Source: Malacoraja senta
Lineage: Eukaryota
Assembly: GCA_038087875.1 (NCBI GenBank)
Contig: CM075991.1
Span: forward strand, 13,518,001-13,582,000
Direction: 5' to 3'
DNA length: 64,000 nucleotides
The notes beneath the pieces are model-generated. The model saw only the letters and a list, made by a program, of their open reading frames with translations, had not been told where the DNA came from and searched no databases. Below are positions 2,600 to 59,100 of the stretch, one piece after another (within the stretch, counting starts at the first letter, position 1; every line of letters starts with the position of its first letter). Made by a program: the position numbers and the translations under genes.

Positions 2600-2872
2600 A
2601 AAAGGAACTGCTGATGCCGTTTTAAACCACAGAAAGACACAAAATGCTGGAGTAACTCAGCAGGTCTGGCAGCATCTGTAGAAAAGGAATGGGTGATGTT
2701 TCGAGCTGGGACCCTTCCTCAGACTGAAGAAATCTGAAGAAAGGTCCTAACTCAAAGTCACCTATCCATGTTCTCCAGAGATGCTGCCTGACCCGCTGAG
2801 TTACTCCAGCACTCTGTGAAACGTCACCTATCCATGTTCTCCAGAGATGCTGCCTGACCCGCTGAGTTACTC
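2600..2872. mobile_element. Penelope-like pseudo-LTR copies in inverted (tail-to-tail) and tandem arrangement
   Basis: TGCTGGAGTAACTCAGCAGG... is followed by its reverse complement GATGCTGCCTGACCCGCTGAGTTACTC twice; degenerate hammerhead-like cores sit at the junction. Confidence 0.7.
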
Positions 2873-4610
2873 GGTGGGGTCGAGCAGGAATATGAATGTG
2901 GAATGCTGGAATAGAAGCAGGAAATGGTTGTTTCACCTCCGTTCATGCTTTCAGTGGGATAAGGCCATGGATATTTGGATCATTGATGCCCAGAGTATTG
3001 CCTCATAGCTGGTCCTCCCACATTCCATGCCACAGACAGATGGGGCATTCAGCCCATTGGCTCCGAATGCCCCAAATTCCCCTGTATCAATGGAGACACA
3101 AGCAACTGCAGATGCTGTTGAGTAAAAGACAAAGTGCTGGAGTAACTCAGCGGGTCTGGCGCGCAGCTTGCTCTGTCTCATCGTGCCCTCCACCCTGGTT
3201 CCTTGGTCATTCACCTACACGGGGTCATGACGCCATCGCCCCACAGGTATCCAGACGGTTGCCGAGGGAACGTACAAATCCACTGCAAGGCACCCAAAGC
3301 AAAGGCAGCAGCTACAAAGGAACACCAATGTTCAGACCAGTCACCCTCAGGATCAACTTCTTCCCCTCTGTTATCAGGCTTCAGCATGGAACTTCCATTA
3401 GCTGGGGTACTGTCCGATTCACCTCGACCCCATTGTAGACATTGGACTTTGTCTCTGGAACTGATGCGCTACAATGCTGAGAACTAAATTCTGCACTCTG
3501 TATCTTCCCTTTGCTCCACCTATTGGATGAGTTTGTCTTGATTGTATTTATGTATTGTACGTCTGATTTGATTGGCCTCGGTTCACGTAACAATAATGAA
3601 CCTGAACCAACCTGACTTTAACTTGGCCTCTGTTCCTTGTGAGCACTGGGTCTGTCACCACAACAGCAGCTCTGAGGGCTAACGGGATCAAGGGATATGG
3701 GGAGAAAGCAGGAACGGGGAACTGGTTTTGGATGATCAGCCATGATCGTATTGAGTGGCGGTGCTGGCTCGAAGGGCTGAATGGCCTCCTCCTGCACCTA
3801 TTGTCTATGTTTCTGTGTTTCTACGACCACACGCACCAGAAGGTAGTCCTGGTGGATCATCTCTCCTCACGGCTTCTCAAGGGCATCGAAGGATGTAACA
3901 CCTGGCCTCACATGATGCCCACAGTCTGTGAAGGAATGGTGGAGATTTAGTGCCTGGTCAAGTTGACTTGTCCAGAGATTGATTATCAGGTAGAGGCCAG
4001 ATGTTATAGACAATAGACAATAGGTGCAGGAGTAGGCCATTTGGCCCTTCGAGCCAGCATCGCCATTCAATGTGATCATGGCTGATCATTCACAATCAGT
4101 ACCCCCTTCCTGCCTTCTCCCCATATCCCCTGACTCCGCTATCTTTAAGAGCCCTATCTTGCTCTTGCTTGAAAGCATCCAGGAATAATAATCCGATTAA
4201 TTATAGCAGGGAAAGGGTGGTTGTTTTTCTTGCGCGGGCTCAAATTGCCTAATTGCATTTCCCGAAGGCTTCGGAGTGAACTTGGACTGACCAAACTGTT
4301 CCCTGACAGCAGAAACAACGTAAAGCCAAGTCAAGTGAGATACAGGAATGATTATTTTGTTACCAAGGAGTGGGCGCCTCGTTGGACGAACGGAGACAGC
4401 GACCGCTCCACTCCTGGGCTCTAGGAGTCGCCGACACAAGCAGGCGGGTGAAGTAGACTGGCATCTTTCACAAGGCATTTGCGGACAGCTTGTCAAATGT
4501 AATTTGCGAAATATATTAGATATAATTTAAATCAGCTATCAGCTGGGCTTTAGACCTCCCGGGATAACAATCCTATAAATACACAAAAATATTGCCCTGG
4601 GAACAACATA

Positions 4611-5348: not shown

Positions 5349-5571
5349 TTGCCTTGGAATAGTTCCTCTCTCACCGTAAACCTGTGCCCTTGGGTTGTGG
5401 GCTCCTCTGGGAGGAAGCCTATGGCCATCCACCATATCCATGCGCCTCATAATTTTAGCTCGATAACTCAGCCTCCGTCTCCTCATAAATCAAGCCTGCC
5501 AGTTCCCACCAACATCCTTGTGAATCATCTCTGCAGCCTCTCGAGCTGAATCATATGTCGGGTGATTATAG

Positions 5572-5784
5572 GGTTTAAGAAGGAACTGCAGATGCTGGAA
5601 AATCGAAAGTAGACAAAAGTGCTGGAGAAACTCAGCGGGTGCGGCAGCATCTATGGAGCGAAGGAAATAGGCGACGTTTCGGGCCGAAACCCTGAAGGAA
5701 ATAGGCAATGTTTCGGGCCGAAACCCTGGAGGAAATAGGCAATGTTTCGGGCCGAAACCCTAAAGGAAATAGGCAACGTTTCGG
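5572..5784 (-). mobile_element. PLE pseudo-LTR fragment ending in a 34-bp tandem repeat (3.6 copies)
   Basis: AAGGAAATAGGC(G/A)A(C/T)GTTTCGGGCCGAAACCCT units start at 5661, 5695, 5729 and 5763. Confidence 0.8.
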
Positions 5785-6588: not shown

Positions 6589-7371
6589 GGATTACCCATT
6601 ATCTTGATGAATGATGGGACAGATCTCCTCCTATTTTATATGTTCTAAGTTCCCCCAGCCCAGGGGTCATGTGTCCTGGCCCGTATGCAGAACAAAGTTG
6701 TCCACCCCTGCCCTCGCCCAAGGGGAAACCCATTGTTTCCCCCACTGTATCCATGTTATTGCATCTAATGATTGTTGTCAATCTCTTCTCTATCCCAGCC
6801 TGTTTCACGTCCTTCAATTACATTTAACTGTAACACTTCAATGTAAAGTTCCAACATTAAAACCAGTATAATACAGCCAATCTTGTCTGAGGAAGGGTCC
6901 CAACCTGAAACATCACCTGTCCATTCCCTCTAGGGATGTTACCGGACCCGCTGAGTTCCTCCAGCACTTCGTCTTTTGCCAATTATAAATCGACTATTTA
7001 TATTCCCAGAAACAACCCGTCTCTCGACTATTGTCCTATTTTGAAAATCTTAGTTCTAAATAGAACAAACTATGCTTCTTGAATCTCGGCGCGAAATGGA
7101 ATATTTTAGCGTTGGCATCACCTAACCAGCCTACCTTGCCTGAAGCCTTTCTGAAGTCTCCCCTGTCCTTGTCATGACAAAGTTTTAAATACGTTGATCA
7201 TTTAGGTTATGTCGTGTTCTTGCATATTGTTGAAAGTACTTCACCAACATTGAATTGTGTCTGCTTGCCTGACACAATGGCTTAAATCAACATGAAACAC
7301 AGCATGAACATTTAAATGGTCTAAAACCAAACAAGTACTTGGGGAGAGAAGGTTTTTTTGTTGTGCACCTG

Positions 7372-7495: not shown

Positions 7496-9424
7496 ATTAA
7501 TCCCATTTTATTCTCTGCAGTCCCATCAGTTCCTCCCAGTTCCTCCCAGATCCTACCACTCACCTACCTCACTACGTACAATTTATACTGATTGATTAAC
7601 CTACCAACCTGCGCGCCTTTAGGACATGGCAACAGATAGGAACGCTTGGTGAAAACCCATGCGTACAAACTCCACACAGGTCAGGATTAAACTCGGGTCT
7701 CTGGCGCTGTGAGGTATCGATTCTACTAGTTACACTATTGTTGCTGCACTCTGCTTCCTTAACTATATAATGTTCAGAATGAAGGGCAGAAGCAATTCTG
7801 TTTCTTAGACACTAAATTGCTGCAAATCTCTTCAGAAGAATATTCGTTGCGTCAGTTTTGTCGCAGGCTGGCTTTGTTGTCAGTACACACAAACGTTCTT
7901 TGCTTATGGTTGCAGAGTCATGCAGTACAGAACAGGCCTTTCGGCCCATCATGCCCACGTGTTCACCATGTTTTTCAGGGACCAGCCCAAACTATTCAAT
8001 AAATGAATGAGTATTGACAACGGAATCAATGTATATGGGGAGAAAGCAGGAACAGGGTGCTGATTTTGGTTGAGCAACTATGATCATCTATGGCGGTGCT
8101 GGCTCGAAGGGCCGAATGGCCTGCACCTATTTTCTATGTTTTATGTGCCTTCAGGTGGCTGGGCCACAGGTACTGGAAAATACCTCTTTCTCTGTCTCCC
8201 ATTTTCTGTTTCCTCTCTCTCTCCACCTCTCTCCCTCTCCCTCTTCTATCCATCTTCACCTTTTCCCTCCCCCCCTCTCCGCCTTGTTCCCCCCCCTCCC
8301 CCTCCCCCTCCCCCTCCCCCTCCCCCTCTCTGCTTTTCCCCTTAAAACCTGAAACTTCCCTGCTAACTGGGAGCTCTAAGCATTTCCTTATGTAGCTTAA
8401 AGTCACATTTTCTTTGAGAAGACGTGTGAAATGCTCCAGGAGGTATCACTTCATTAAAGATGCTATATAAACACAGGTTGAAAGAATATCCATTTGCCTC
8501 AGAAAAGATTTGTAAATTGCATGTTTATTCTCCTGCCACTCAGCACCCAAGTCAAGAGGTCACATGCATCTCTTTGTCCCTGACCCGAATGATGCTGAAG
8601 ATTTTTCTACTTTACCTCGTTCGATCACCAGTCCATTTTATTTCCCACACCAGATACTTCACTCATATCAGATTATTACTCAATTGCAAACTAACTGGGA
8701 GATGATTAAAACAAAATGTATTGCTGCACAAGGAAACAAGTGTGGCACAGAGGATCTGTTAACAATGGGGTGATTGATTCGGGAAACAATAACAGGTGCT
8801 GTCCCAGATTTAGGTTACCTCAGAGAGGTATTTTGTCAGTGGATGTCACTGGTGTAGATTAGCTGTGATCCATTCAAAATGTTTTGCTTACTTTCAAACA
8901 TGCTGGTGGAAGGCAGTCTTCTCCTGGCAGTTGATGTGGTTCTTGTACAAAGGAAGCTACTGCGTAGCCTTGCCTGTATGGAATGTCGTTTACAACAGAA
9001 ATTGAGCTCCGTTTATTCCTTCGCTCCATAGATGCTGCCTCTCCCGCTGAGTTTCTCCAGCATTTTTGTCTACCTTTGAGATCCGTTTGATTGGAATGAT
9101 GCACCTGCCATGATTCAGTGGAAGTCCAGGTGTGAATGGAAGCCCAATATGCTGCCACTTATCACATAAGCCATTTTGGTGATTTTTTAACTGGTGAATG
9201 CTGTCTTCAGTATCTGATGTTTTGTATCAGCAGCACATTGCATCAGAACTACTAGTTTTTAGCAACTTTACCATTTCAATATTATTTTAAAATCAGGCCA
9301 GGAGTACTTCCAGAATAGGAGTCAAAATTCTTGCTCAGCCAACATTTAATTAACTGAAATAAAATATTGTCATTTAAATATCTCCCAATCAGAAACATAA
9401 AACATCGCTAGCCCTTGCTGTCTG

Positions 9425-9652
9425 AACATTGAATTCTCCCAATTTTGCTAGCCCTTGCTGTCTCCTCCCCTTCCTCAGCCCTCGGGCTGTCTCCTCCCAT
9501 CCCTCAGCCCTCGGGCTCCTCCTCCGCCTTTTTCCTTTCTTCTCCCCACCCCCCATTAGTCTGAAGAAGGGTTTCGGACCGAAACGTTGCCAATTTCCTT
9601 CGCTCCATAGATGCTGCTGCACCCGCTGAGTTTCTCCAGCATTTTTGTGTAC
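9425..9652 (+). mobile_element. PLE 3' fragment: end of GIY-YIG ORF plus pseudo-LTR with hammerhead motif
   Basis: AACATTGAATTCTCC (NIEFS, cf. NIDFSNFR* at 35964); CTGAAGA 9561-9567, GAAAC-GTT 9581-9588. Confidence 0.8.
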
Positions 9653-11273
9653 CGTCATTCTTCCATCACTTGGAATCATTGAAAGTTCCGACTCAATCAA
9701 TTTCCAACCTGCCGCAACAAACCAATAACCTCTAGAGATACAAGAAACTGCAAATGCGAGAATCTTGAGAAAAACACAGTGCTGGAGTAATTCAGTGGTT
9801 CAGGCAGCATCTGTGGAGGAGGTGACAAATCAGGTCGAGACTCTCGCTCAGACTGACAAACTCTGTTCCATTTACTCAGCAACTTTCATGGTAGTAAAAT
9901 GATTATGACATTCACTAGCTTAAACTAAAATAGACTCAATATCTAGAGAACATGAGTTCAAATCCTATCCTGGGATTTAAATGGAAAAAGGAAGTTTGAC
10001 TGGTGGAGAGAGCTGGGATTTAGGTCAAAACTGGCAGTTTAATTCCTTGTTTGGAAGAAAACTGGTCCTCTTTATTTGATCCGATCTCTTGTCACTGACA
10101 AGATATTGAGGCATTATTTTTAAAGCGGAAACTACAGATATCTAAAATCTATAATTAAATCAGAATATGTTGGAAACACGCACCAGGTCCAATGGCATCT
10201 TTGAAGGGAATGACAAAACGTGTCAATGCTCTGAGGTGGTGCACTTTTGCCTTTACCACTCGCCTGCTGAGATTCTATCCTTCACATTTCACATCCACCC
10301 ATGAGTACAGATATGTGTAAGATATTCAAAGTTTCTTGAGTCACTGTTTTCCTGGCATGTGTAATGCACAATGCCCAATAGAAGGGTCTCGACCCAAAAC
10401 GTCACCCATTCCTTCACTCCAGAGATGCTGCCTGTCCCGCTGAGTTACTCCACCATTTTGTGTCTATCTTCAGTTTAAACCAGCATCTGCAGTTTCTTGC
10501 TACACAAGCTTTTGAACTCTCTGTTTAATAGCGTTAATTCACTCCACCTTACACCTGCCCTGGCTTACATTTCCACTTCATCCCCTTTCTGCTTCAATGA
10601 TATACCTCTTACCTTTTGGGTAACAAAGCTTGCAGATCTTCCCTCTCTAGTCCTTGTCGGAGGCTAGCATCATTCCCCTCAATCCCCATCTCCAAGAACT
10701 CCAAGCCCAGGCTGTTGTTGACTGTTATTCTGTCGCATTAGACATGACCTCTCGCCCCATATTGTGGATTGATGTTACTTGCTCTCATACAGAACTAGTG
10801 GTTCATTCCCACTGACCATTTCCACATGTCCCTTATCCGTGTCTTCCCTTTCCTTTCCACAATTCTCCAACTTCACCTTGGAACTCAACTTTATCTTTCG
10901 AATTCCCTTCACTTCTGCTCTCAGCCCTATTCCCACCCAGAGCGGAAACAGGGGTACCTATGGTCCTCGCATTCCACACCCCATCAGCCTTAATATTCAA
11001 TGGATCATCCCTGGTCATTTCTACCGGTTTCAGAATGCGGATACACAGGGCACATCTTCCCCACCCGCACCGTTCAAGATTCTGCAGAAAAAGTTCTCTC
11101 TAACACCCTGTTTCCCTCTTCCTTCTTCCACACCGCACTCCATTTCAATCACCTTCCCATGTAATTGTATCAGCTGCAATGCCTAGCCATATTCCATTCC
11201 ATTTCCACCATTCCGGGACCCAAGAACCATGCAAGATAAAGCAGCAATTGACTTGTGCTTCTTCCAGTCTAAT

Positions 11274-12761: not shown

Positions 12762-12764
12762 TTA

Positions 12765-13439: not shown

Positions 13440-14734
13440 TCAAGAGCTAAATCTACTGTAACTCTCTAGAAAACAACGCTGAGAAGACTTTGCTCACTAT
13501 AACCTCACAATGTTTATATTTCAATGTGACAGAATCTAAACTATAATGGAAGGGTTTGGTGGTTTTAGCTGAGCTGAATGAATCCTCTTTGCATCTCATC
13601 CTTGACTCTCTCTCTCACTGCAACTAATGAGCCATTTGTGCTACCTGCTGACGGGTTTCTATTGACGGGATTGATGTTCCCACCACTCTGCTCCCGTTGT
13701 TATTTATCTGACACCCTTTCGAGTCCTTTTCATCTCTAGCCTTTGTCCACCTATCTTCCAATCAAAACCGTCTGAAGTATCCATCCATCACTTGCCAGGC
13801 TTTGTTCCACCCCATCTCTTTTCTGCTTTCTCCCACTACAACAATCAGTCTGAAGAAATGCCCCAACCCCAAACGTCACCTAATCATTCCCTCCACAGAT
13901 GCTGCCTGACCTCCTGAGTTCTTCTAGTACTTTGGTTTTTGCTCCAGATTCTTGTGTCTTCAGATATTACTGGAAACATAAGAACATAAGAAATAGGAAA
14001 AGGAAGATGTCATTTGGTCTGTTGACCCTGCTCCACCATTCATCAAAAGATGATGGCCCATCTGTGTTTCAAGCGACTTTCCTGCCGCGGCAATCACGTT
14101 TGGAACAAAGGACAAACCATCATATTTGAAATCTTAAAGTTTATCAATTTCTGTTTTGAATGAACTTGGTGACTTTGTTGTAGAATCTGTTGTAGATTCC
14201 AAAAATCACCAATGTGAAGAAGTTTCTCCTCATGAATGGCTTATTCTTTATCCTCTAATAATTGTGTATGTTTGAATGAGGTCACTTTTAATTCTTTTAA
14301 ATTTCAGAGAATAGATGGTTATCCAACTTAATCTCTCCACACATTACAGAACCATTGTCCGAGGAACCAATGAAGAGATTACCTCTTAGCACCCTCCCGG
14401 CTTCACCGAAGGCAGCCCTCATTATAAGTTAAAGCTGCTTCAGCTGCACTTCCTCCAAGACCAATATTTAAAGTAAGCAACATTTCTAAAAGAGGTCTAA
14501 ATGGACTGATCTGGTAGGTTTGGTGATCAATACTAAAATTGCCTCTTCACCACTTGATTAATTTATTCGATTATGAATTAAATTGAATGGCTTGTTTCTA
14601 TGACTCTGTTTAACTGGAGCAAAACCTCCTTACTTTTATATTTAACATCCTAGCAATAAACAATGAGAGGGTAGACAAAAATACTGGAGAAACTCAGCGG
14701 GTGAGGTAGCATCTATGGAGCGAAGGAAAAAGGA

Positions 14735-14764
14735 AACGTTTCGGGCCGAAACCCTTCTTCAGAC
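14735..14764 (-). ncRNA. Minimal hammerhead ribozyme motif in a PLE pseudo-LTR
   Basis: Minus strand reads gtCTGAAGAaGGGTTtcGGCCCGAAACGTT. Confidence 0.65.
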
Positions 14765-19535: not shown

Positions 19536-19975
19536 ACATTGGGTTTCCACCCTCGAGAACAAATTAAACAATGATTCTGCTGAATGTTGTTTTTGTGGGG
19601 TTAAGTGTTTCTCAGATTGGCTCCCCAATAATGAGATATTTTATGGACTGTAGGAAGCTTTGAGATATCTCCAGGTTTCTCCAATTTTAATCAAGGTTAT
19701 TACACATGGTTATTTATTACACATGCTGGCATTTGTCTTGGCTCGTAGTAAGCTGAGTGCTTCTAATTGATTTTTTAGTGGATGGATATTCACCAGCCAA
19801 AGCAGGAATAAATATACATCAGGTTATTCCCTCCCCGAGAGGAAGGTGGTGTTGGGAGTGGTGTTGGTAATACCATTCGCCTAGAGAATCATGTGTTTTA
19901 GTGAGCAACATGGATCTATTCTTTCTGTTAAAATACCAGTTCCATCAGATGAAAATGACTCTTCTTTGATTCCAG

Positions 19976-20138
19976 ACAGACAAATTCCTCTACCACATGC
20001 GGCTGTCAGATGAAGTTCTGCATGATATATCTGAACGCTTTCTAAAAGAGATGAAGCGAGGACTTGGCAAAGATACCAATCCGACATCATCGGTCAAGAT
20101 GCTGCCTAGCTTTGTCAGGTCAACTCCTGATGGGACAG
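19976..20138 (+). CDS. HK2: HK2 exon 2 ([15 protein letters not shown]...[15 protein letters not shown])
   Basis: ttccag|ACA...ACAG|gtaagg; 163 nt. Confidence 0.96.
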
Positions 20139-44100: not shown

Positions 44101-47100
44101 TGGACAGTCTCCACATCTGACAATAAAACATCTTGACTCTTTGGGAAGAGCTGGTCTCTTCCTGCCCAGCATTCTCCTGATTATATGAATTGCAAGAATG
44201 ACTTTTATGGAGACAATGCAGGGAAATCATGGTCAGCCATATCTACATTGTCTATGTGGAATGGTGCAGCAGGCTCAAGGGCTAATGGCTTAACCTCATT
44301 ATAATGTTTAAGATCGTGAACTGTGCGCCACCATTAAAAAAAATAAAATTAATTTCTTTGAATCCCAAGTTTTTGACTGAATTCAAATTCTGCGAATAGA
44401 CTTGGGATTTAAAATCATTTATCTGAATTGATAGCCCAGGGTTCTAGGATACTATCCTGGTAATTTAATCACTGTAGCTCAGGATCTTCTGTTACTGTGT
44501 TGTGTTTATAATGTGCATTGTGGTATTTTCTGTGTAACATTTTGCTTGTATTTCTACAGGTACTGGCACAAATGCTTGTTACATGGAAGAGATGCGGCAC
44601 ATTGACTTGGTAGAAGGAGACGAAGGGAGGATGTGCATCAATATGGAGTGGGGCGCGTTTGGTGATCAGGGAGAACTGGATGATATTAGAACAGATTTTG
44701 ACATGGAGATTGACAGTGGGTCCATCAATCCAGGAAAACAGCTGTAAGTCATAAACATAGTTACTCTTAAGATGCAGGGAAGGAAACATTTGTTACCCAT
44801 TGCATCTGTGTTTTGGCTACATGTCACTGAAGTCCATGCGATGAACATGGATCTCACTTTTGGTGTTAATTGGGGAATAGCATTTTGACACCGGGACAAT
44901 CATGGGGAATGTGATCCAACTGATTGGTGTGACTTAGAAGCCAGCCTTGGTACCAGCAATAACGTCTGTAGTTCTATTGAGCGGCTCTTTCCATTCCATT
45001 ATCTTGATCACCACAAGGATTCATAAGAAACTGAATGAAATCTATGAGAAGTCATAATATCAGTCATGGTGATATGGTTATCCTCTCTGTATCTCTGAAG
45101 GTGTGAACCTCTTGTCATGCCATCAGGGACATGTCGATAGGTCGGTGGGCTTTGTACCTACCTCTATAACATCCAATGTCTAGATTAGCGCATGAACATT
45201 AGCTGAAGCAATGCTTATTAGTGATGCTGGTGCGTTTCAAAATTCACCTCTGCACCCAAGACAACAAGGCTGAGCCTGCAGAAGTTAAATAAACTGTAAG
45301 TTTAAAGTCAGAACTGATTCTTGCCAAATGGTTGCACATAGGATGAAGCACTTTTTTAATGTTCTGATTCATAATGGAATATTTGAAAGAAAGTGCATAA
45401 AGCTCAGAACTTAAATGCTAAATCACCCTGGCCATTTTCCATGTTGGTTTAGGGTTTCTTTCCTGTCTCATGGAGCAGCAGGTAAAGTGAAGTTGTGGCA
45501 TAGGAAGGATGTTGCTATTATCACAATGTAAGTCTTGATGAAAATGGACAGGCTTATTGGGACACCTAGTCTTTTCCTACCTGGCATTTTTCTGCTGATA
45601 TTAATTACAAGTATAAAAATGTGGCCCTAGCTTAAACAAAGAATCCAATACTGTATGGCCAGAACAAACATGTGCTTTCAAACTGTCTTATTTCTGCAGG
45701 TTTGAGAAGATGATTAGTGGAATGTATATGGGCGAACTTGTTCGACTTATCTTAGTGAAGATGGCAAAGGATGGTCTGCTGTTTAGGGGAAAACTCACGC
45801 CAGAACTACTTGTCAAAGACAACTTTGAAACCCAATTTGTCTCAGCAATAGAGAAGTAAGCAAAACCTTTCTTGTAAACAGCTGTCAGTTGGTGAGGCTG
45901 AGGAACTATCTGCCAGATGATTCACAGATTATTTTTATATATTGATTTGAGGAATTGAGGAAGGAATTAACAAAATTAACTTGAACATTTTTTTACCAAT
46001 GGAAGCAGATCAAATAACTAAGCACATCAAAACAAGACTGATCAAGAAACAAAACAAAATGTTTTTTCCAGCAGTTTGTTTTGTGCTCGAGATTCCAGCA
46101 ACTGCACTCTTGTATCTCAAAAACAACATTATTGGGAAATTAAAGAGAAAAACAGGAGAATATTTGTTAATCCATGTCAAACTAATTTGTAGAAAAGTCA
46201 TCACAGAAAACCATAGAATAAGAAATATCTTGCAGCTAGATACATTTGAAGAAACTCTGGCAGTTGTGTGTGTCACTGGTAGGTCCAGCATTTATTGCCC
46301 ATTGCTAGCTCCTATTGGCCCTTCACAGAACATGGTAGTCAACCATATTGGGACATATGCCAGGCTTATTTCTTTAAAAAGTTATCGTGAACCAAGTGAG
46401 TTATGCAAATTAAAGATATTTGAGTTCACATTCTCATTTCAACGTTATCCATCTGACGTTATCAATTAAGATTTAAATCTGAATCACAGACTAATATATT
46501 GCCACATCAAATTCTAATGAGAAAAGACATTGAAGGTAAGGCAAGACACTAAATGCTGACATTTTTTGTGAGAAACAATGTGCTGGAGGAACAGTGGATT
46601 CTGCAGCATCTGGAGAGGGAATGGACAGACAGCGTTTTGGATTGCTGCCCTTTTTCAGACTGATGGGGTTCCAACTTGAAAAGTCCATTCCCTCCACAGA
46701 TGTTGTTTGACCTGCTGAGTTCTTCAAGCACTTTGCTTTTGCTCAAGAAACAAATGCACCATTCTCAAAAATTCTTAAGTGGAAGTTAAATTTATTGAAT
46801 TAAAAAGTAAAATCTTGGGAGTAATTAATATTTAACAACTTCCTCTCTGCCTATCATTTCAGGGACTCTGATGGACTGCAGAGGGCACATGGTATTCTAA
46901 ACAAACTGGGTCTGGAGCCAACATCAGATGACTGTATAGCATTACGCCGGATTTGTAGCATAGTATCGACCCGGTCGTCCGATCTCTGTGCTGCCACACT
47001 TGCCGCTGTGCTGAGGCGTATCCAAGAAAACAAAGGGCTCCAGAGAATGCAGACCACGATTGGTGTGGATGGGACTGTGTACAAGATGCACCCCCAGTGA

Positions 47101-50100
47101 GAATAGTTTGTGCTTACTTTATGCCACACTACAAACGTTAAAAATGGTTGAAAGGAATGGACCGAATTTCAGCTCTTACAACATCATGAGCATGATGCTC
47201 GATTATGCAGTGAGAGTACAGGGCTGATCGGAATTTTCATCCCTTTTCAACAGGTTTGCCAGACGGTTAAACAAGGCAGTGAGAAGATTGGTCCCCTCCT
47301 GTGAAGTTCGTTTCCTGCTCTCTGAAGATGGCAGTGGAAAAGGTGCTGCCATGGTAACAGCAGTGGCCCACAGGCTTGCTAAGCAACAAAAGATGAGGGA
47401 GGAGAGTCTGTCCGCATTCAAACTGAGTGAGAAGCAACTACTGGAGGTGAAGAGTAGGATGAAGTTGGAAATGGAACGGGGCCTGAAGAAAGAAACTCAC
47501 TCTACTGCAACTGTAAAAATGTTGGCAACTTATGTGCGGGCAACACCGGATGGAACAGGTACACAGTTTGAAAAGCCTGAATTCTATATTGGTTAAGTGT
47601 ACTGTCCTCAGGATTTGACCAAAGTCCAATATTTTCCCATCTTTCTGTGGGCTGTAATTGTCATAATTTGAATCACTTCAGTTTACTTGTTCCGCAAGGT
47701 TTGTAGGTTAAATGGCTTGGTATAAATGTAAAATTTGTCCCTAGTGTGCGTAGGGTAATGTAAGTGTGTGGGGATCGCTGGCCGGTGCGGATTCAATGGG
47801 CCGAAGGGCCTGTTTCTGCACTGTATCTCTAAAAGTAAATAAACTAAACTAGAAGAACAGTTGTTACATTGGCAGTGTTCCGATTCTCTTCTTCAAAATC
47901 TCTAAGGATTTTTGGAAGATTGCAACCAATGTCTAGAAACTCATGAAACATAGTGAGAGTAGTTGATTCCACCACTTCTCAGGCTGTGTATTTCAACCAT
48001 CCTCTGGGTGAAAACAATGAATTCAGATCCTTTCTAAACCTTTTACTCCTCACATTAAACCTACGCCCTCTGATTTTGCATACATGCTTAGGAGAAAGAT
48101 TCTTGTCCCCTGCCATAAAACATGGGATCAGAATTCAACCCTTCGAGTCTGCTCTGCCATTCGATCATGGCTGGTCCATTTTTCCCTGCTGCCTTTTCCC
48201 CTTAACCTTTGACTCCCTTACAAATCAAGAACCCATCAATCTCTCCTTTAAAAATACCTGATGACGTCCTCCACCACCATCTGTGTCTATGAATTCACAT
48301 ATTCACCCCTCTCTGATCAAATAAATTCCTTCTCATCTCTTTCCTCTTTCCAGAAAAGGGTGATTTCTTGGCACTGGACCTTGGGGGTACAAATTTCCGT
48401 GTGCTGCTTGTGAAGATTCGTGATGCGAACCGTCGAGTTGTGGAATTGCACAACAAGATCTACACTATTCCTAAGCATGCAATGGAAGGAACAGGGGAGG
48501 AGGTGAGCAAATCAAAAGGCCACTGTGTGTAAAAGGTACTCTGCGGATGGTGGATTTGCTGTGTGAGGGGTGATTGAGTGGACAGACTGTAGTCTCTTGA
48601 ATTTAGATGCAATTCTTGTGGGTTTGACAGGCTGTACATGGAGGGTGATTGAGGAATCTAGGAAAAGGGGCACAGTTTCTGAATCAGAGATCGTCCATTT
48701 ACGACTGAAATAAGAAGAAATGTCCATTCCAGATTGTAAAACTTTAGAATCTCTAACTCCAGGGAGATTGGAGGTTCATCAGTGTGTTCATTCAAAACAG
48801 AGATTGATGTCTTTCTGGATACCAAGGGTATTAAGGGTTATAACATATGTATTACAACACAGAGACTATTTAGCCCAGGGGTGGGGAACCTTTTCATGTT
48901 GGAATGCCGCATTAAGTTAGCTGTAATCTAATAAGGCCGCATCCAAGAAACTTCAATTAGATATATATCTTGAAAGTTGTTGAAAGAATCTATTCCTCGT
49001 GTTCTACCTGTAAGAATGCCCAAAGCGAGTAACTCTTTGTGGCAATAAAATATCCTTCATGACTTACTAATGTTTTAATTGTGGCCATCAGTCGGGGGAG
49101 ATTATTTTGTTGAATCTTCTTTTACTCTTTGGTATTTTAAATACGTTCATTTTAAGATTAAAATAAAAATAATAAAAGACGAACTAAAACATATTAATAA
49201 AAATAAAAGGATTTGTTCTACAAAATTTGGATTCATTCAAAACGCTGCAATTAAAGGTTAGGAGTGGGGGAGTAGGAGGATAGAGGGAGAGGAGGGGGCG
49301 GTAGGGAGGGAGAGGGAGGGGAAGTTGGGGAGATTGGGGAACGAGGGGGGATAGAGGGAGAGGAGGGAGAGTGGGGGGTGGGATAGGGGAGTGGTGAGTG
49401 TGGGAGCAGGGGGTTAGAGGGAGACAGGGAGGGGAGAGGGGTTATGGAGGGAGGGAGGGAGTGGGGGAGGGGAGGGAGTGCTGGGGGGTGAGGGGGAATG
49501 GAGGAGGATAGGGGTAGGAATAGGGATGGCAAGGTAATGGAGGCGGGGAGTGGGGAGAGAGAGGAGGGGAGGGAGGGGTGTGGGGAGGAAGCAGAGCAGT
49601 GTTGGTGGAGGGTGGAGGAGGGGAATAGGGGACTGAAGAGGGAGAGTGAGATGCATTCACATTGATCTCATATTTTTCAAAGTATTGCCATTTTAAACTT
49701 TAAAAACATCACAGTCGCGCTCCCACTTGCTGGCTGCACCTGTGCTGTTAGGTGAGGGTTGCCGTGACCCGCGTCACAACGGGAACCTGTCAGCCGCCCC
49801 TGCACAGTTGGGGGCTATGGGTGAGTGGTGGAATATTGCGTTGGGGGAACGGGCTTGGTCTAGTAAGTATATAAATGTAGATTGTTTATTAAGGAATTGA
49901 CCATAAGTGCATACAGATTGTAATACTTTTGGCTATTGTTTTGTTTAATAGCTCTTTGATCACATTGTTCAGTGTATTGCTGATTTCCTGAAGTATATGG
50001 GGATACAGCGCTCCAGGCTTCCACTGGGCTTCACCTTCTCTTTCCCGTGCGAGCAAAGGACCTTGGATCAGGTCAGTACTGTGGGCGGTGCACCCAGACA

Positions 50101-53100
50101 TGACTGTACAGCAGAATATTGTAGACCAAGACTAAATGGGCAAATCAACTCCCTTCGGTCCTATCAGCTGCAAATGAACCAGATAGCACAAGAGTCCTGT
50201 GCACCGAATACTTTCCTGACTTTATTCATCTATACATCTTGGTTTAAATTCAAATTTATAAATGAAAATGTCCTATTGGCATAAAGATCCTAAGTGAAAT
50301 GAATCTGAAAAATCGCAGCCTAATTAAAAGTAGTCTGTAAAGAATATTATCAGTGTTGTGCAGTTAGTGACTGCTTCAGTTCTCCATTTTGAGTGAGATC
50401 ACTAACTGTGGTACTCTGATAATATTGTTTTGCAGATTAAAATGTCCGTCAAACAAAAACACAACATCTCATTGAAAGCAAATTTCAGCTTTCTCCCATC
50501 TATATTTTGATGAAAATTTGTGTTTTTGCTTGATGGAGGCTAGTTTTTCTCTGCTTCTGATCCAAAGTTGATATGAATGTGATAGTTTGGGTGGCCAGAT
50601 AAATATCTCTCTTAACTTGTTTTGAATCATGGCCAATGTCAGAATACTCTTAGGGCTGATGATTTAATTCAAAATTATAATTTGAAGGCAATAACTTTGT
50701 TTCTAATCTGCAGAATGATAGGAGATGAGGGAAGATGGGTGAGGGCATGGATTTATCTAGATGAGAAACATGTTTGTGTGTGGCAGTGTATTCTGTGAAT
50801 CGATGGCTACCTGTGCACTAATGTTCATATGTTTACATTTTGCAGGGAATTCTTTTAAATTGGACGAAAGGATTTAAAGCTACTGGCTGTGAAGGTAAAG
50901 ATGTGGTAACCCTCCTTCGAGAAGCCATCACGAGAAGAGCGGTAAGGAAGCAGTTAGAACCTGTTGCTTTTGGCCGCTCTTTTGATCGTTGTAGTCTGAA
51001 GACCCAAGAAAGAAATTAATTTAAATACATTGCCATAAATAGGAGGAGGGGAAGACATTTCACTCCTTAGAAGCTGAGATTTGCCATTTGTTCAGCTCAA
51101 GGCTAATCATGTTGATAAGTTGTAGCAGCAGAATTAGGTAATTCGCTCCATCGTCTACTCCACCATTCAATCGCGGCTGATCTATGTTTCCCTCTCAATC
51201 CCATTCTCCTGCCTTCTCCCCTTAACCCTGATAACCAGTCAAGTGCCATCAGCATGGACTCATTTGGGCAAAGAGCATGTTTCCACGCTGTGTCTTTCAA
51301 TCACTCAGTCATTGTTAAAATTCACAATTTAACTAAATTTAACTAAAAGATCCAAGTAACAGTTTTAATTCTTGTTTCATTGGCTGGATGGATGATTGGC
51401 AAAGATCTGTAATTTTTAACGTAATAAATATATAAAAGGTTGAAAAGGAATCCCAATCTCCTCTCTGATTTTCAGTTTCTTTCTGTGCTTTTACACATTC
51501 ATCTAATGGCTGCAAGTTGTGATGCAAATAAGTTTGTTTCATGATCCCATCCAGGAGTTTGAGTTGGATGTTGTGGCAATCGTTAATGACACAGTGGGAA
51601 CAATGATGTCCTGTGGCTATGATGATCCCCTCTGTGAAGTTGGCCTCATTGTAGGTGAGTACTGGACAGGAGCAAAGCTTCCAGTTGCCGCTGTTGAAGA
51701 AACGTCAGCCACCTGACTGACAATAGACAATAGACAATATGTGTAGGAGTAGGCCATTCGGTCCATCGAGCCAGCAAGGACTAGCAAACGTTGAGCTATT
51801 TAAAGAAGTTAGTTTGTATCTTGTGCTTTCACCAATTATCTGTCCAGTGTTCTGTCAATAAATTTCTGGGAAATGTTGTGTCTCTATTCAAGATGGGCTG
51901 CAGGGAAAATGTTGGGAACTATAGGCCAGTGATCTTAACATCTGTAGTTGGAAAGTTACTAGAGGGTATTCTGAGGGATAGATATACAGGCATTTAGACA
52001 GACAAGCGCTGATTAGTGATAGTCGGCATGGTTTTGTATGTGGGAGGTCGTGCCTCACAAATCTGAGTTTTTGAAGACGTGACCAAAAGGTTGATGAGGA
52101 CAGAGCTCTAGATGTATATATATAGACTTCAGCAAAGCGTTCAATAAGGTTTCACATGGTGGGCTGCTCTGGAAGGTTAGATCGCATGGGATCCAAGGTG
52201 AGATAGTTGTATGGATAGAAAATTGGCTGACGGAAGGAAGCAGAGAGTGAAGGTTGCTTCTCGGACTGGAGGCCTGTGACAAGTGGTGTGCCTCAGGATT
52301 CGGTGCGAGGCCCATTATTGTTTGTCATTTACAGTGCCCTCCAAGATGTTTGGGACAATGACCCATCATTTATTTATTTGCCTCTGTACTCCACAATTTG
52401 AGATATGTAATAGAAAAAAAAATCACATGTGGTTAAACTGCACATTGTCAGATTTTAATAAAGGCCATTTTTATACATTTTGGTTTCACCATGTAGAAAT
52501 TACAGCAGTGTTTATACATTGTTCTCCCATTTCAGGGCACCATAATGTTTGGGACACAGCAATGTCATGTAAATGAAAGTATATTTTAAAGAAAAAACTG
52601 CAGATGCTGGAAAAATCGAAGGTAGACAAAATGCTGGAGAAACTCAGCGGGTGAGGCAGCATCTATGGAGAGAAGGAAATGGGTGATGTTTCGGGTCGAG
52701 ACTGATGTGGGGGTGGGGGGGGGGGGCGGGAAGAAGAAAGGAAGAGGCGGAGACAGTAGGCTGTGGGAGAGCTGGGAAGGGGAGGGGAAGGAGGGGGAGA
52801 AAGCAAGGACTACCTGCAATTGGAGAAGTCAATGTTCATACCGCTGGGGTGTATACTACCCAAGCGAAATATGAGGTGCTGCTCCTTCAATTTGCGGTGG
52901 GACTCATTCTGGCCATGGAGGAGGCCCAGGACAGAAAGTTCGGAATGGAAGGGGGAAGTTGAAGTGCTGAGCCACCGGGAGATCAGGTTGGTTATATGAA
53001 ATGAAATGAAAGTAAATGAAAGTAGTCATTTTTAGTATTTTGTTGCATATCCTTTGCATGCAATGACTGCTTGAAGTCTGTGATTCATGGACATCACCAG

Positions 53101-56100
53101 TTGCTGGGTGTCTTCTCTGGTGATGCTCTGCCAGGCCTGTAATACAGCCATCTTTAGCTTATGCTTGTTTTGGGGGCTAGTCCCCTTCAGTTTTCTCTTC
53201 AGCATATAAAAGGCATGCTCAATTGGATTCAGATCGGGCGATTAACTTGGCCACTCAAGAATTGACCATTTATTAGCTTTGAAAAACTCCTTGTTGCTTT
53301 AGCAGTATGTTTGGGATCATTGTCCTGCTGTAGAATGAACCGCCGGTCAATGAGTTTTGAGGCATTTGTTTGAACTTGAGCAGATAGGATGTGTCTATAC
53401 ACTTCAGAATTCATTATTCTACTACCATCAGCAGTTGTATCATCAATGAAGATAAGTGAACCAGTACCAGCAGCCATACATGCCCAGGCCATAACATCCC
53501 ACCACCGTGTTTCACAGATGAGGTGGATACTTTGGAGCAGTTCTTTCTCTCCTCCATACTTTGCTCTTGCCATCTCTATGATATGTTAATCTTCATCTCA
53601 TCTGTCCACAAGACCTTTTTCCAGAATTGTGGTTTATCTTTTAAGTACTTCTTGGCAAACTGTAACCTGGCCATCCTATTTTTGTGGCTAACCAGTGGTT
53701 TGCATCTTGCAGCGTAGCCTCTGTATTTCTGTTCATGAAGTCTTCTGCGGACAGTGGTCATTGACAAATCCACACCTGACTCCTGAAGGGTGTTTCTCTG
53801 ATCTGTCATAGAAACATAGAAAATAGGTGCAGGAGGAGGCCATTTGGCCCTTCGAGCCAGCACCGCCATTCATTGTGATCATGGCTGATCATCCCCAATC
53901 AATAACCCGTGCCTGCCTTCTCCCCATATCCCTTGATTCCACTAGCCCCTAGAGCTCTATCCAACTCTCTCTTAAATCCATCCAGTGACTTGGCCTCCAC
54001 TGCCCTCTGTGGCAGGGAATTCCACAAATTCACAACTCTCTGGGTGAAAAAGTTTTTTCTCACCTCAGTCTTAAATGGCTTCCCCTTTATTCTAAGACTG
54101 TGGCCCCTGGTTCTGGACTCGCCCAACATTGGGAACATTTTTCCTGCATCCAGCTTGTCCAGTCCTTTTATAATTTTATATGTTTCTATAAGATGTCCCC
54201 TCATCCTTCTATACTCCAGTGAATACAAGCCTAGTCTTTTCAATCTTTTCCCATATGACAGTCCCGCTATCCCAGGGATCAATCTCGTGAACCTACGCTG
54301 CACTGCCTCAATCACAAGGATGTCCTTCCTCAAATTAGGAGACCAAAACTGTACACAATACTCCAGATGTGGTCTCACCATAGCTATATACAACTGCAGA
54401 AGAACCTCTTTACACCTATACTGAAATCCTCTTGTTGTGAGGAAGGTACTATAATAACATTTAAAATATGTTTGGGAAGGTTAGGAGGGATATGGGCCAA
54501 ATGCAGGTAGGTGGGACTAGTGTAGATGGGGCATCTAGGTCGGTGTGGGCAATTTGGGCCAAAGGGCCTGTTTTCATGCTCATGAGAAGGAGGCTTAGGG
54601 TTAAGGTGAGAGGGGGAAGATTTAAAGGGGATCCGTGGGACAAAGTCTTCCCACAGTGTGTGAAATGTACAACCAGAGGAAGTGGTTGTGACTGTCGGAC
54701 AGGTGTTTGGGGATTTTTCTTTATTATAGAGAGAAATCTTCTGTCATCAGCTGTGGAGGTCTTGGCCTGCCTGTCCCTTTGCGATTAGTAAGTTCACCAA
54801 TGCTCTATTTCTTCTTAATGATGTTCCAAACAGTTGACTTTGGTAAGCCTAAGGTTTGGCTGATGACTCTTACAGTTTTATTCTTGTTTCTCAGTCTCAT
54901 AATGGCTTCTTTGACTTTCATTGGCACAACTTTGGTCCTCATGTTGATAATTGATAAACAGCAATAAAAGTTTCCAAATGTGATGGAAAGACTGGAGGAA
55001 AGTCTAGGTGCTGAGAGTTCTCTTATACCTGCATTAAGGAGGCAATTAAACACACCTGAGCAATTTAAAATACCTGTAAAGCCATGTGTCCTAAACATTA
55101 TGGTGCCCTGAAAAGGGGGGACCATGTATAAACACAGCTGTAATTTCTACATGGTGAAACCAAAATGTATAAAAATGGCCTTTAATAAAATCTGACAATG
55201 TGCACTTTAACCACATGTGATTTTTTTCTATTACATATCTCAAATTGTGCAGAGGCAAATAAATTAATCATGGGTCTTTGTCGCAAACATTATGGAGGGC
55301 ACTGTATGTCAATGATTTGGATGAGAACATAAACAGCAAGATTAGCAAGTTTGCAGATAATACAAAGGTGGGTGGTTTTGCAGATAGTGAAGATGGTTGT
55401 GAAAAATTGCAGCAGGACCTTAATTGATTGGCCAGGTGGGTTAGGAATGGTTGATGGAATTTAATACACAGAAATGTGAGGTGTTGCATTTGGGAAGTCT
55501 AACGAGGGAAGGACCTACACAATGAATGGTAGGGTCTGGGATTTTTGTAGTGCAGAGGGATCTAGGGGTGCAGGTGCATGGTTCTGAAGGTGGAGTCGCA
55601 GGTAGATAGAGTGGTCAAAGGGCTTTAGGCACATTGGTCGTCATCAGTCAGAGTATTGAGTCTAAAAGTTGGGAGGTCATGTGGCAGTTGTATAAGATGT
55701 TGGTGAGTCCGCATTTAGAGTATGGTGTTCAGTTCTGGGCAACATGTTATAGGAAAGATGTTGTCAAGCTGGAAAGAGTACAGAGAAGATTTACGAGGAT
55801 GTTGCCAGGACTAGAGGGTCTGATCTTTTGGGAGAGGTTTTTGTAGACTGGGTCTCTATTCCTGGGTGATCTTATAGAGGTATATCAAATCATGAGAGGA
55901 ATAGATCGGGTAAATGCACAGAGTATCTTGCCCAGAGTAGGTGAATCGAGGCCCAGGTGACATAGCTTTAAGGTGAAGGGGAAAAGATTTAACAGGAATT
56001 TGAGGGGTAACCTTTTCACTCAAAGGGTGGCAGGTGTATGGAGTAAGTTGTCAGAGGAGGTAGTTGAGGCAGGAACTATCTCAACATTTAAGGAACAGTT

Positions 56101-59100
56101 AGACAGGTACATGGATACAGTCTGAAGAAGGCTTTCGGCCCGAAACGTTGCCTATTTCCTTCGCTCCATAGATGCTGCTGCACCCGCTGAGTTTCTCCAG
56201 CATTTTTGTGTACATGGATAGGACAGGTTTGGTGGGATATGGACCAAATGTGGGCAGATGGGACTAGTATAGCTGGGACATGTTGGTCAGTATGGACACG
56301 TGGGCCGAAGGACCTGTTTCCACCCAGTATCACTATGTCTCTATGACTTTAAATGATGAATAGTTTATGGGAGTCATTTGCAGCCCATCTGCTCAGTATA
56401 ACAAGGAGGTGACTGAATCCAAGGTAAATACACCTGTTAAGGTTCAATAAGTGGAAGATTAGAATTCACTGATCAACAACATTTTGTACTTTAAATCAGA
56501 AATTGAGATCAGTTTTACTGTGAATCTAAAGCTGGACCATGATTCCTAATGCCCTGATCGATGCGACAAAGACAGGATTTTAAACTGCACTTGGAGAGTG
56601 GGCAATCTCAACCCAGGGAAATAAATAAACAGAGTATTAAATAATGGTGGTATATGAAACTACCAGCATGTGGTAAAAATCCCAGCTCATATTTTAGCTC
56701 GGGAAAGCTGTCATCTTTGGCTTTGTTATCATCTGAGCATTTGTGATCTATATTCTCCATTATAACAATGCCAGAATCTCTCATTTCCCCGTCTATAAAC
56801 TTTAGGTCATCCCAAACTCCATCGCCCGCATGCTGCCTTCCATCTTAGCTTGGTTCACATCATGTGATTATCCTTTTCTGCAGGAACTGGGAGTAATGCC
56901 TGTTACATGGAGGAAATGAAGAACGTGGAGATGGTTGACGGAGATGAAGGAAGGATGTGTGTTAACATGGAGTGGGGAGCATTTGGTGACAATGACTGCT
57001 TGGATGACATCAGGACTGAATTTGATCTGGAAGTGGATAAAAATTCACTCTACGCTGGGAAGCAGAGGTATTTTCCAGGCACTCAAACCTCTGTAACTGA
57101 CTGTTGGTGGTGGGACATCAGATAAACTGTAGCGCTATGAGACCAGGGACACCAGTTGCCAGGGAGTTCAGATACATGGGTTCAGGACTCTTATTTGCAT
57201 CCAATTGCTGTTGAAAAGCATGGACTATGTGTATACACATAGCTGGGTTCAGTTACCTGTGCACACATGGTGCTACTCTATGAAGAATTATTACTTGCGG
57301 TGTGGTGTTGCAAGATCACTGGAAGAAAGGAAAATGGGAAAATATTTTAAAATGGCAAACTGAGAGCTGCCTCATAGATATTGAAACCAACATGCAATTG
57401 TTGTGCTCTGGAGAGGTGAACTAATGTAAAGTACAACATTGGGTTTTTGAGTCGACTATGACCTCTGTCCATTCTAGTTCAGTTTGGTTACACTTATGTT
57501 TGAAAGTCATTTGTGAATTCACAAATTGCAGTATAACCGGGCTTAACTTCTAAACTTGATATGAGGTTGAGCATTTCTTTCATTGCTATCCTCACTCCTG
57601 ACTATGGATTATTGCTCCTGCCTTCACATTCTTCTCCTCTGGCCCCATGTTCTCTCCAGATCTATTCTCTGCTTACTTACTGTGTTACATTGTCTATCTC
57701 AATCTTCCATTGTCGTTATTCACTCCATTTCTGTCCCCTGCTCTAAACTTGAGGCAATCCTCAAACTAAGGACTGTCATCAGACCTAGGTAGACGCAACA
57801 TTTTGGAGTAACTCAGCGGGATAGGCAGCATCTCTGGTGTGAAGGAATGGATGACGTTTCGGGTCGAGACCCTTCTTCAGATAGAGCATTGCTGATGAAG
57901 CTGACCTGCTGACAAGGGCGATACTGGTGTTGTTTAGCAAGTTGACCCTTGGTTTACAGAAGTTGGATGTTAGTTCACAGGCAGGGTATTGGAAATGCTT
58001 GTTACAGGCAATGGACTACACTTTTTCAATGGTATTTGTGTAAATTCTCTTTCATGGAGATATCTGATTTTGATTGTTCTCCAGATTTGAAAAGATGATC
58101 AGTGGGATGTATTTGGGAGAGATTGTCCGGAACATCCTAATCAAATTCACAAAGCAAGGTCTGCTGTTTCGAGGGAAGATCTCAGAAAGGCTCAAGACGC
58201 AAGGCATTTTTGAAACCAAATTCTTGTCTCAGATTGAGAGGTATGCTATATGTGAACAGTTGTATCATTGTCAATAAATGTACCGTTGCCAATTCACCAT
58301 GAGTTGTACAATTCCTAGAACCCAGTCATGAAGACACTGTCTCTGCATAGCAGATGGTGCTTTGAAGAAACTAGATGAGGGGCAGCAGAATGGACAAGTG
58401 GATGGTACATATATCATAACCCGGTTGGACTTTTAACAGTTAGTCACACGACTCTTCCCAAATCCGATGTCAATCCTTACACCCTGCCCCCCCACACCCC
58501 ACTCCCAGTCCGAGACTGATGTTTACACCTAGAATAAGCTTATCTCTCGTCATAACTGTAATTGTCCTACCCTGGTACATCTGTGTAAGATTCCCTTGTA
58601 CTTTTTGTACCTCTATTAACGCCTTCCTGAAGCCTGACCAGAATATATCCACTGCTTTAGCTGTGGCCTAACTAGTGCTTTATACAGAACGTGCACAACT
58701 CCTGCTTGTTTTACACTTGATCCCTTTCTGTCAGACCTGCCATCTTCAACAATGTGTGGACATGCGCTCCAAGGCCCCTCTGCACATCTTGCAAGCTTAC
58801 CATTTATTGTGCATGGCTGTTCCTTGTTTACTCTTCCCAAATGTGTTACCTTGTTTTACGTATATTTCCTCACAAAATAGAAAAAGCTCTTATTTATATT
58901 TAGAACATTCTGAACAAACTGGACAAAATAAATGCTGGGATTATTCCCTTTTGTGGAGGAGTATAAAACCAAAGGGAATAATCACAGAATAATGTGGTGC
59001 CTATTTGGCACTGAGATAAGGAAACATTTCTTCTCTTTTTATATTTATTTGTGCCACCAAGCTGTGGAGACTGAATCCTTGAATGTATTCAGGGTCAAAT

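Follow-up and report, generated by a model that had tools for sequence, protein, structure and literature searches.

A 64,000-nucleotide stretch of the genome of Malacoraja senta (contig CM075991.1, positions 13,518,001 to 13,582,000; hereafter the window) harbours many short sequences built around a minimal hammerhead ribozyme. These sequences are copies of the end module of a young Neptune-like element of the Penelope type, and they were probably inserted by the reverse transcriptase (RT) of that element from RNA which the ribozyme had left uncut. The element is of a known kind, albeit one with an unusually abundant and sharply bounded short product.

Ends and abundance of the short copies

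The Penelope origin of the short units, proposed in an initial annotation made from the window sequence alone, was confirmed by comparison with full-length elements. The module represents the 3' part of their terminal repeat: it consists of the minimal hammerhead, about 65 nt of adjoining sequence and an optional tail of ~33 nt, and it forms the last part of the repeat. Positions in the module are counted from the first C of CUGANGA (position 0), the predicted cut lying between +27 and +28. A profile built from 43 natural copies was used for the module searches, and the genome was sampled as 120 10-kb stretches at even spacing on the 18 largest contigs (1,198,200 called bases). The sample contained 487 module matches, 0 to 15 per stretch, which make up 4.0% of its bases; scaled to the 1.94-Gb genome, the total is estimated at about 790,000 module copies. 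One exact 28-mer of the module has 18,728 matches in the genome, and the reversed control has none. The core, stem II and stem III are kept in 56 of the 487 matches, and stem I as well in 42 of them; the number of intact motifs in the genome is estimated at about 70,000-90,000.

Altogether 385 of the 487 matches could be scored for their ends, the others being without the 3' part, low-scoring or located at the edge of a stretch. The 5' ends were determined by upstream extension against 48 natural references, from which upstream group 5 (seven near-identical segmental copies) had been excluded. Copies with a 5' end in -6..+4 are referred to as edge copies, and those reaching +4 constitute the at-risk set. 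As many as 152 of the 226 at-risk copies stop within these 11 nt at the edge of the core, at a rate of 0.097 per nt compared with 0.0105 in +10..+49; upstream of -15 the rate is 0.006-0.010 per nt, and 54 of the 385 copies extend beyond that point. The peak is present in every subfamily. Hence, as the initial annotation had supposed, the short copies share boundaries beyond those expected of random 5' truncation.

It is very improbable that the copies were simply truncated at random and that the peak reflects poor alignment through the fast-changing pyrimidine tract upstream of the core, even though the library of 48 upstream references may miss some families. Exact duplications of 7-15 nt, ending at -5..+4, abut 22 of the 116 non-inverted edge copies (19%), compared with 1.7% of shuffled pairs. 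These target duplications adjoin the edge irrespective of how the copies are aligned, so the peak does not result from faulty alignment. In addition, the pyrimidine content upstream of the edge copies equals that of the background (0.49 and 0.49), which argues that they are not unrecognised long copies. The assembled contigs of relatives have loose ends at the same place, although contigs cannot show starts or levels; among the matches listed, no GT-AG ends were seen at the joints in these contigs. The 5' junctions of 95 copies showed no excess of a cap-derived extra G (17% at -4, 7% at -5).

The 3' ends are bimodal, with 204 and 160 of the 385 copies ending at two sites about 33 nt apart. The short copies therefore fall into two size classes, and the two classes with target duplications described earlier for the window were thus recovered in the genome sample. 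More than a third of the copies (139 of 385) are arranged in head-to-head pairs. In the case of 43 of these 139 copies a single duplication surrounds the whole unit (2.7 expected), which indicates that the head-to-head pairs arose as single events.

Well-defined ends, one on the 5' side and two on the 3' side, target duplications and a very high copy number would also be found in a non-autonomous element resembling a short interspersed nuclear element (SINE), possessing its own promoter and RT-start sites and being re-copied in trans. We regard such an origin as improbable. Clustering of 323 copies gave nine groups, with edge copies in all nine and long copies in six, and in these six the short and long copies carry the same diagnostic sites, so that no separate master is needed; the separate non-autonomous family postulated in the initial annotation is not supported by this result. 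The mixture of short and long copies is seen in the young clusters, and the same 5' edge recurs in each subfamily. Subfamily D, with 75 edge copies and 7 long ones, and the three clusters without long members speak for a SINE-like element, but these three clusters are the oldest (16-19% divergent). Nor is there a clear excess of copies that have taken host flank with them: duplications more than 30 nt upstream were found in 9 of 116 copies compared with 2.5 expected, and at least five of the nine involve neighbouring module pieces.

Parent element and proposed formation of the short copies

The full-length element L173, located elsewhere in the genome, comprises a terminal repeat (3572-3853), a frame of 1233 amino acids and a second repeat extending to 7759, and it is flanked by an 11-nt target duplication. 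The frame contains matches to RVT_1 at 717-886 (E 5.9e-06) and to GIY-YIG at 1137-1170 (E 0.0022), both below the Pfam cut-offs, and a cysteine linker (CX2-5CxxC) is visible in the translation ahead of GIY-YIG. The module is present at both ends of L173, L175, L185 and L189, as direct terminal repeats derived from partial tandems. In the tandem context it continues directly into the leader of the open reading frame (ORF), and the long frame has its first ATG ~160 nt downstream of the core. Of the 20 long copies retrieved, 19 have 3' ends with 93-100% identity to the module of subfamily B, and the nearest named relatives of the element protein come from sharks and rays. Judging by ORF layout, repeats, tail, inverted copies and linker, the autonomous partner is assigned to the endonuclease-containing (EN+) Neptune-like Penelope elements, the clade being given by these features. 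Strong 5' truncation is evident from the numbers of first-look candidates in the genome, which amount to 106,904 for the GIY-YIG piece (35967-36395) and 5,826 for an upstream part of the ORF. The 140 long copies were divided into 13 groups by their upstream sequence; in the groups listed, except for one set made up of segmental copies, the core is immediately preceded by a pyrimidine tract and CAG(T). L173 also contains a 41-codon upstream frame (3774-3900), which starts within the module and, in a different reading frame, overlaps the beginning of the long ORF, and a donor-like AG/GT at the first ATG of the long ORF.

In the case of the anole element PAc, RT starts at two internal sites, the spacing of which equals the tail, and the product extends to the template's 5' end, a shorter template 5' end giving a shorter product; uncut RNA serves as the principal substrate, and extension takes place on both target strands (PMC11167929). 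This scheme could account for the presence of two 3' ends, for the retention of the core and for the head-to-head pairs observed in M. senta. Both 3' ends would correspond to internal RT-start sites like those determined in vitro for the anole element, and priming at the front-repeat copy of these sites on the element transcript would give a complementary DNA (cDNA) of 90-135 nt. The cDNA would terminate at -6 to +4, on reaching the beginning of the template or a block on it. The favoured cause of the edge is the 5' end of the RNA, with a putative start site at an initiator-like TCAGT, a motif that we take to resemble the initiator consensus. If both target strands were used for priming, head-to-head pairs within one duplication would result. 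A minority of the RNAs would be cut by the ribozyme, which would probably act as a protein-assisted dimer; minimal Penelope motifs are reported to have no activity as monomers and low activity as dimers (PMC4209133).

Alternatively, copies of the same origin could owe their 5' edge to a block, at which RT stalls or a 5' exonuclease stops because element protein or splicing factors are bound to the hammerhead and the pyrimidine tract with CAG. The stop rate indeed climbs as a ramp from +10 to -3 and drops again upstream, and the tract and CAG(T) are common to all listed upstream groups but one, despite their differing otherwise. Moreover, the anole ribozyme cuts solely with bound protein (PMC11167929), and the intron of Drosophila virilis Penelope has its 3' end mapped to the 5' end of the 2-bp helix I (PMC4209133). 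A block fixed by sequence, however, should also hit the front repeat of long copies. Among 15 simple ORF-leader loci taken from 472 tail-leader junction matches just 2 stop at the edge, compared with 13 of 22 subfamily B copies (p 0.007), and 4 of 17 do so if two complex loci are included, so the stop position is not set by sequence alone. One candidate spliced junction (one donor tested) had 0 matches in the genome, and spliced genomic copies were rejected on this basis. In our view a block is an unlikely cause of the edge, though the chief competitor of the RNA start.

Several observations weigh against reading the copies as RT products that end at the 5' end of an uncut RNA. The 5' ends are spread as a ramp across about 11 nt instead of falling on a single base, which suits a protein footprint or an RT stall equally, and CAG with the pyrimidine tract reads equally well as a splice acceptor. 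Were -3 the start of all transcripts, the complete long copies would be expected to end there as well; 13 of 15 continue upstream, which calls for a second, longer class of RNA or for template switching. In D. virilis the start of Penelope is placed 46 bp before a 75-bp intron (PMC2377424); if that layout is shared, transcription would start well upstream of the ribozyme. An abutting duplication occurs in just 19% of the edge copies, and the three clusters without a long member, although small and old, comprise 13, 11 and 5 copies. Finally, although CpG decay in the core is about the same as outside it (19-27% vs 14-24%), as expected for copies under little or no selection, and the module copies are likely to be inactive after insertion, the non-CpG positions of the core differ less than the rest (3.6% vs 5.8%), perhaps owing to selection bias in the sample or to real constraint.

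A more far-reaching scheme, possible but rather doubtful, would have the Penelope RNA of cartilaginous fish start right at the hammerhead. A cDNA of 90-135 nt, comparable to a strong-stop product, would then either integrate at once or jump to the matching 3' repeat, building long and partial-tandem copies as retroviral minus-strand DNA does, and a minority of the RNAs would be cut in vivo and circularised, leaving arrays that start at the cut site.

Tandem arrays and related elements

The initial annotation described the copies as retrozyme-like. Tandem precursors of retrozymes cleave themselves into monomers or circles, which are reverse transcribed, and it is hardly credible that the copies of the window are such monomers. 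Monomers should begin at +28 and have the core at the 3' end, but 376 of the 385 copies begin elsewhere; the copies occur singly or in head-to-head pairs, with the whole core retained at the 5' end, and nine begin at the cut site. None of the 56 intact sampled copies has an intact neighbour on the same strand within 1 kb, and hammerhead tandems are absent from the window copies. Starts at +28 are mildly enriched (9 of 331 at risk vs 3.5 expected, p 0.009), and genome-wide the patterns for +28 and +29 starts gave 290 and 95 matches, respectively, an excess of about 1.9-fold after correction for pattern probability. However, six of the nine +28 starts lie in head-to-head pairs, and many of the genome-wide +28 matches look like small deletions or palindromic junctions. 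The +28 peak was rejected as proof of cleavage, as it is weak and confounded by microhomology.

Tandem arrays do exist elsewhere in the genome, which favours the retrozyme explanation: five perfect ones were read among the first 100 of the 472 tail-leader junction matches (Table 1). The 138- and 165-nt units have the same start and different 3' ends within the leader. The arrays with units of 384, 254 and 275 nt, in which every unit has a complete hammerhead, fit the published definition of retrozymes. The arrays starting at the cut site, together with the excess at +28, can be regarded only as suggestive of cutting in vivo. A further locus, L284 (G000:C1:247.04 Mb), has three units in succession that share their end position in the leader, one of them followed by a short A run, and the next unit starts at -4 twice; this arrangement looks like the outcome of end-to-end template jumps between short RNAs.

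The metazoan Penelope hammerheads (PMC4209133) share with the present module the core, the extra base at 9/10.1, G10.1-C11.1, the loopless palindromic stem III and the location in terminal repeats, and they also occur mostly as solo copies across the genome, which were ascribed to truncated elements. Helix II has 4 bp here and 7-8 bp in the Schistosoma families, whereas helix I has 2 bp, like that of the D. virilis variant. The about 70,000-90,000 intact motifs of M. senta compare with about 4,000 in the coelacanth and 9,000 in Xenopus, and the 5' ends mapped here have no counterpart in the sections of that survey available. The anole element PAc, of the Poseidon type, likewise has its hammerhead at the junction of repeat and ORF and two internal RT-start sites which define an optional tail (PMC11167929). 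Its ORF, however, begins inside stem II and not ~160 nt past the core, the element of M. senta differs from it in the Neptune-type cysteine linker, and no hot spot of 5' ends is described for it in the text consulted.

The EN+ Neptune elements (PMC8557442) agree with the present element in having one ORF with RT plus a GIY-YIG domain at its C terminus, the CX2-5CxxC linker, strong 5' truncation, partial tandems, an adjacent inverted copy and a tail of 30-40 bp (cf. ~33 nt here); the sharp clustering of truncations at the edge of the ribozyme sets the element of M. senta apart. The retrozymes without long terminal repeats (PMC7229834; bioRxiv 10.64898/2026.07.22.740005) also have a type I hammerhead, an origin in Penelope repeats and scattered solo "monomers". 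They are tandem repeats with a ribozyme, mostly canonical, in each unit, whereas the copies of the window are solo or head-to-head, carry the minimal motif and do not have cut sites as their boundaries.

The presence of hammerheads in Penelope repeats and the occurrence of solo copies, tails and inverted copies have already been published (PMC4209133, PMC8557442, PMC6765202). In the literature covered, mainly outside subscription journals, no report was found of a cluster of 5' ends at the ribozyme edge, although supplementary tables (PMC4209133, bioRxiv 10.64898/2026.07.22.740005) may list these sequences; the same literature, in the sections available, gave no report on such motifs in sharks and rays, apart from one chondrichthyan (bioRxiv 10.64898/2026.07.22.740005). 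The role of the hammerhead in Penelope elements and the origin of partial tandems and tails have been called unresolved (PMC8557442, PMC11167929). If the origin favoured here holds, about 4% of the genome is a fossil record of the products of the element RT, and this record points to mostly uncut templates in vivo, cDNA ends fixed at the edge of the ribozyme and few arrays starting at the cut site. The findings show neither a new class of mobile elements nor regulation of HK2, the host gene of the window, by self-cleavage.

Hammerhead motifs, host gene and other features of the window

All seven copies of the hammerhead motif reported as near-intact were found at the claimed places and strands, with CTGANGA, the extra A, stem II, GAAA and C(G/A)T(C/T). 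The strict core-plus-stem pattern has 9 matches in the window, whereas 200 first-order Markov simulations of the window gave 0.015 matches on average and at most 1; a loose pattern has 17 matches, 9 of which are the hammerhead motif. The profile search yielded 31 pieces, 16 on the + strand and 15 on the - strand, including every degenerate copy named earlier. The designation near-intact is appropriate for four of the seven, 14762(-), 30187(-), 34450(+) and 57880(-), in which the core, stem II and stem III are kept, but not for the other three: there is a stem II mismatch in both 9561 and 56122, and a stem III pair is lost in 38448. If the 2-bp stem I is taken into account, just 34450 and 57880 are fully intact. 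The copy containing 34450 is 99-100% like the terminal repeat of full-length L171/L173.

The motif proved to be a minimal type I hammerhead, as had been proposed, with the CUGANGA and GAAA boxes, the NUH triplet, the extra base at 9/10.1 and G10.1-C11.1. For stem II, 4 bp closed by a tetraloop (UUCG, CUCG or CCCA) describe the motif better than the 5 bp and 2-nt loop of the earlier drawing. Stem III is palindromic and loopless, reading A-C-G-U in master-like copies, a geometry that permits dimers; a pair of this stem has been lost through CpG decay in about a fifth to a quarter of the copies. The 2 bp of stem I are followed by A-C and C-Y mismatches in nearly all of 71 copies, so that the helix I of 4-5 bp of the minimal Penelope hammerhead is not present. 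The difference in stem II between subfamilies is a one-sided change between U-A and U-G, the sole common variant (173 and 35 of 225 copies, respectively), and not covariation. None of the four pairs changes on both sides, and the covariation score of 0.253 hardly departs from that of shuffled data (0.240; 149 of 500), variation among the related subfamilies being small. Folding of five copies gave z values of -0.29 to +0.83 and thus no support for a stable monomer ribozyme. In the best predicted folds the core is paired with the stretch of pyrimidines that follows the cut site, and for the 34450 copy the best fold has -10.6 kcal/mol, compared with -4.5 kcal/mol for the active form. The Rfam search suggested in the initial annotation returned 18 matches in the window (E up to 10), no hammerhead among them, and the hammerhead models did not match L173/L266 either; evidently, these models miss the minimal form.

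The positions of the copies are listed in Table 1. The unit said to follow the GIY-YIG ORF in the larger Penelope fragments is present at 35740 and 52582, but its core is gone there by internal deletion. Target duplications, attributed earlier to the short copies, are likewise not a feature of all: exact flanking repeats of at least 7 nt accompany 8 of the 18 window copies tested and are absent at the tested intervals 57786-57884, 30093-30188 and 38341-38452.

Table 1. Hammerhead modules and the host gene in the window, and tandem arrays elsewhere in the genome
Feature	Position	Strand	Remarks
Intact copy, young subfamily B	34415..34543	+	pyrimidine tract from -37, CAGT, core 34450-34477; ends at first 3' site; 14-nt flanking repeat
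Short copy, start -1	57786..57882	-	intact core and stems I (2 bp), II and III
Short copy, start -3	14667..14764	-	core and stems II and III intact; first pair of stem I broken; 7-nt flanking repeat
Short copy, start at first core base	30093..30187	-	stem I lost
Short copy, start -4	56118..56213	+	stem II mismatch; inside another repeat; 11-nt target duplication
Short copy with tail, start -2	38329..38452	-	stem III pair lost, CpG decay
Longer 5'-truncated copy, start -140	9417..9654	+	last ORF codons, 3' untranslated region (UTR), hammerhead at 9561 (stem II mismatch)
5'-truncated Penelope	35737..36460	-	GIY-YIG end 35967-36395, 3' UTR, end module with tail, core deleted; PF01541 E 5e-05, 24 bits, over Pfam cut-off
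5'-truncated Penelope	52582..52994	-	ORF end, 3' UTR, end module with tail, core deleted; 11-nt flanking repeat
Head-to-head pair	2598..2872	.	full core (2699-2722) and tail in - copy; partial tandem in + copy
Head-to-head pair, core-less pieces	38484..38633	.	one shared 16-nt target duplication
Old head-to-head pair	46571..46735	.	
Copy starting at ~+7	5570..5784	-	34-nt piece, from stem II to shortly beyond cut site, repeated 3.7 times in tandem; without CUGANGA
Older short copy, start -2	6885..6975	+	full core; stem III pair lost
Core-less piece, start near cut-site region	9013..9080	+	7-nt flanking repeat
Copy with tail, start +4	10380..10510	+	incomplete core
Old copy with upstream pyrimidine tract	13846..13960	+	decayed core
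Short copy	21875..21974	-	core 3 nt short; 7-nt flanking repeat
Short copy	32393..32482	+	core 3 nt short; 8-nt flanking repeat
Short copy, start ~+4	33345..33442	+	
Old decayed copy	43331..43448	+	
Old decayed copy with tail	9738..9855	-	
HK2-like hexokinase	19974..60081	+	exon 2 (19974-20138), exons near 31974, 37059, 37571, 37798, 46825, 47228, 48353, 49949, 50834, 51561, 59671
Array, 138-nt unit	L255-L265 (G000:C1:27.817 Mb)		starts exactly at predicted cut site (+28), ends in ORF leader; 11 junction matches
Array, 165-nt unit	L281 (G000:C1:381.271 Mb)		starts exactly at +28, ends in ORF leader; 4 matches
Arrays, whole hammerhead per unit	L266-L278, L282, L283		units of 384 nt (13 matches), 254 nt and 275 nt

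The identification of the host gene as HK2 is supported by scores of 223.6 bits to HK2 and 201.5 bits to HK1. The HK2-like exons extend to at least 60081. Exon 1 was not found in the window, and a motif for it taken from the contigs of relatives is absent there at 3 mismatches; with exon 1 outside the window, positions 1-19973 would be part of intron 1, and all copies on the + strand are probably sense in the pre-mRNA. As to the suggestion that sense copies place potential cut sites in this pre-mRNA, 34450(+) is indeed fully intact, intronic and sense, but it is the sole such copy, and motifs of this kind reportedly require a partner, of which there is none near it. The closest sense copies to retain a full core are about 22 and 25 kb away, and their stem II is mismatched. 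With the partners distant and mismatched and the strands balanced (16 and 15), self-cleavage of HK2 pre-mRNA by the window copies appears unlikely.

A second ribozyme-like sequence was detected at 19158-19235 (-), where a local search with the Rfam model of the mammalian CPEB3 ribozyme, which is related to that of hepatitis delta virus, gave 27.7 bits (gathering score 35, E 8.9e-06), with 24 of 25 core letters identical. This match belongs to a dispersed repeat, a 92% copy of which (L213:8694-8812) starts at the 5' edge of the motif, and 357 exact 22-mers of the repeat occur genome-wide, compared with 0 for the control. Among the literature matches listed there was nothing on a CPEB3-like ribozyme in fish. 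The sequence is possibly a ribozyme heading another mobile element, and as such would be of interest for where the CPEB3 ribozyme came from.

The window also contains two tandem repeat regions. The first (4776-5348) consists of 7.3 copies of a 78-bp unit, 96% alike, and is kin to dispersed repeats at 11273, 36701, 42923, 54478 and 56200. The second (12365-13450), situated within the tail sequence of a long interspersed nuclear element (LINE), contains a 12-bp unit repeated 24.5 times, together with an almost perfect hairpin of 116 bp (13160-13275) and a second block in inverted orientation. Two broken LINE pieces lie on the - strand, one with a reverse transcriptase domain (24034-25606, RVT_1 E 1.7e-14) and the other with an endonuclease domain (38640-42167, E 8.4e-11), the latter presumably CR1-like by its look. 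The frames at 53229-53869 (-), which resemble a fragment of a Tc1-type transposase, gave no Pfam match in the one frame scanned. Long imperfect hairpins of about 110-150 bp at 19385-19535 and 7372-7495 are possibly miniature inverted-repeat elements.

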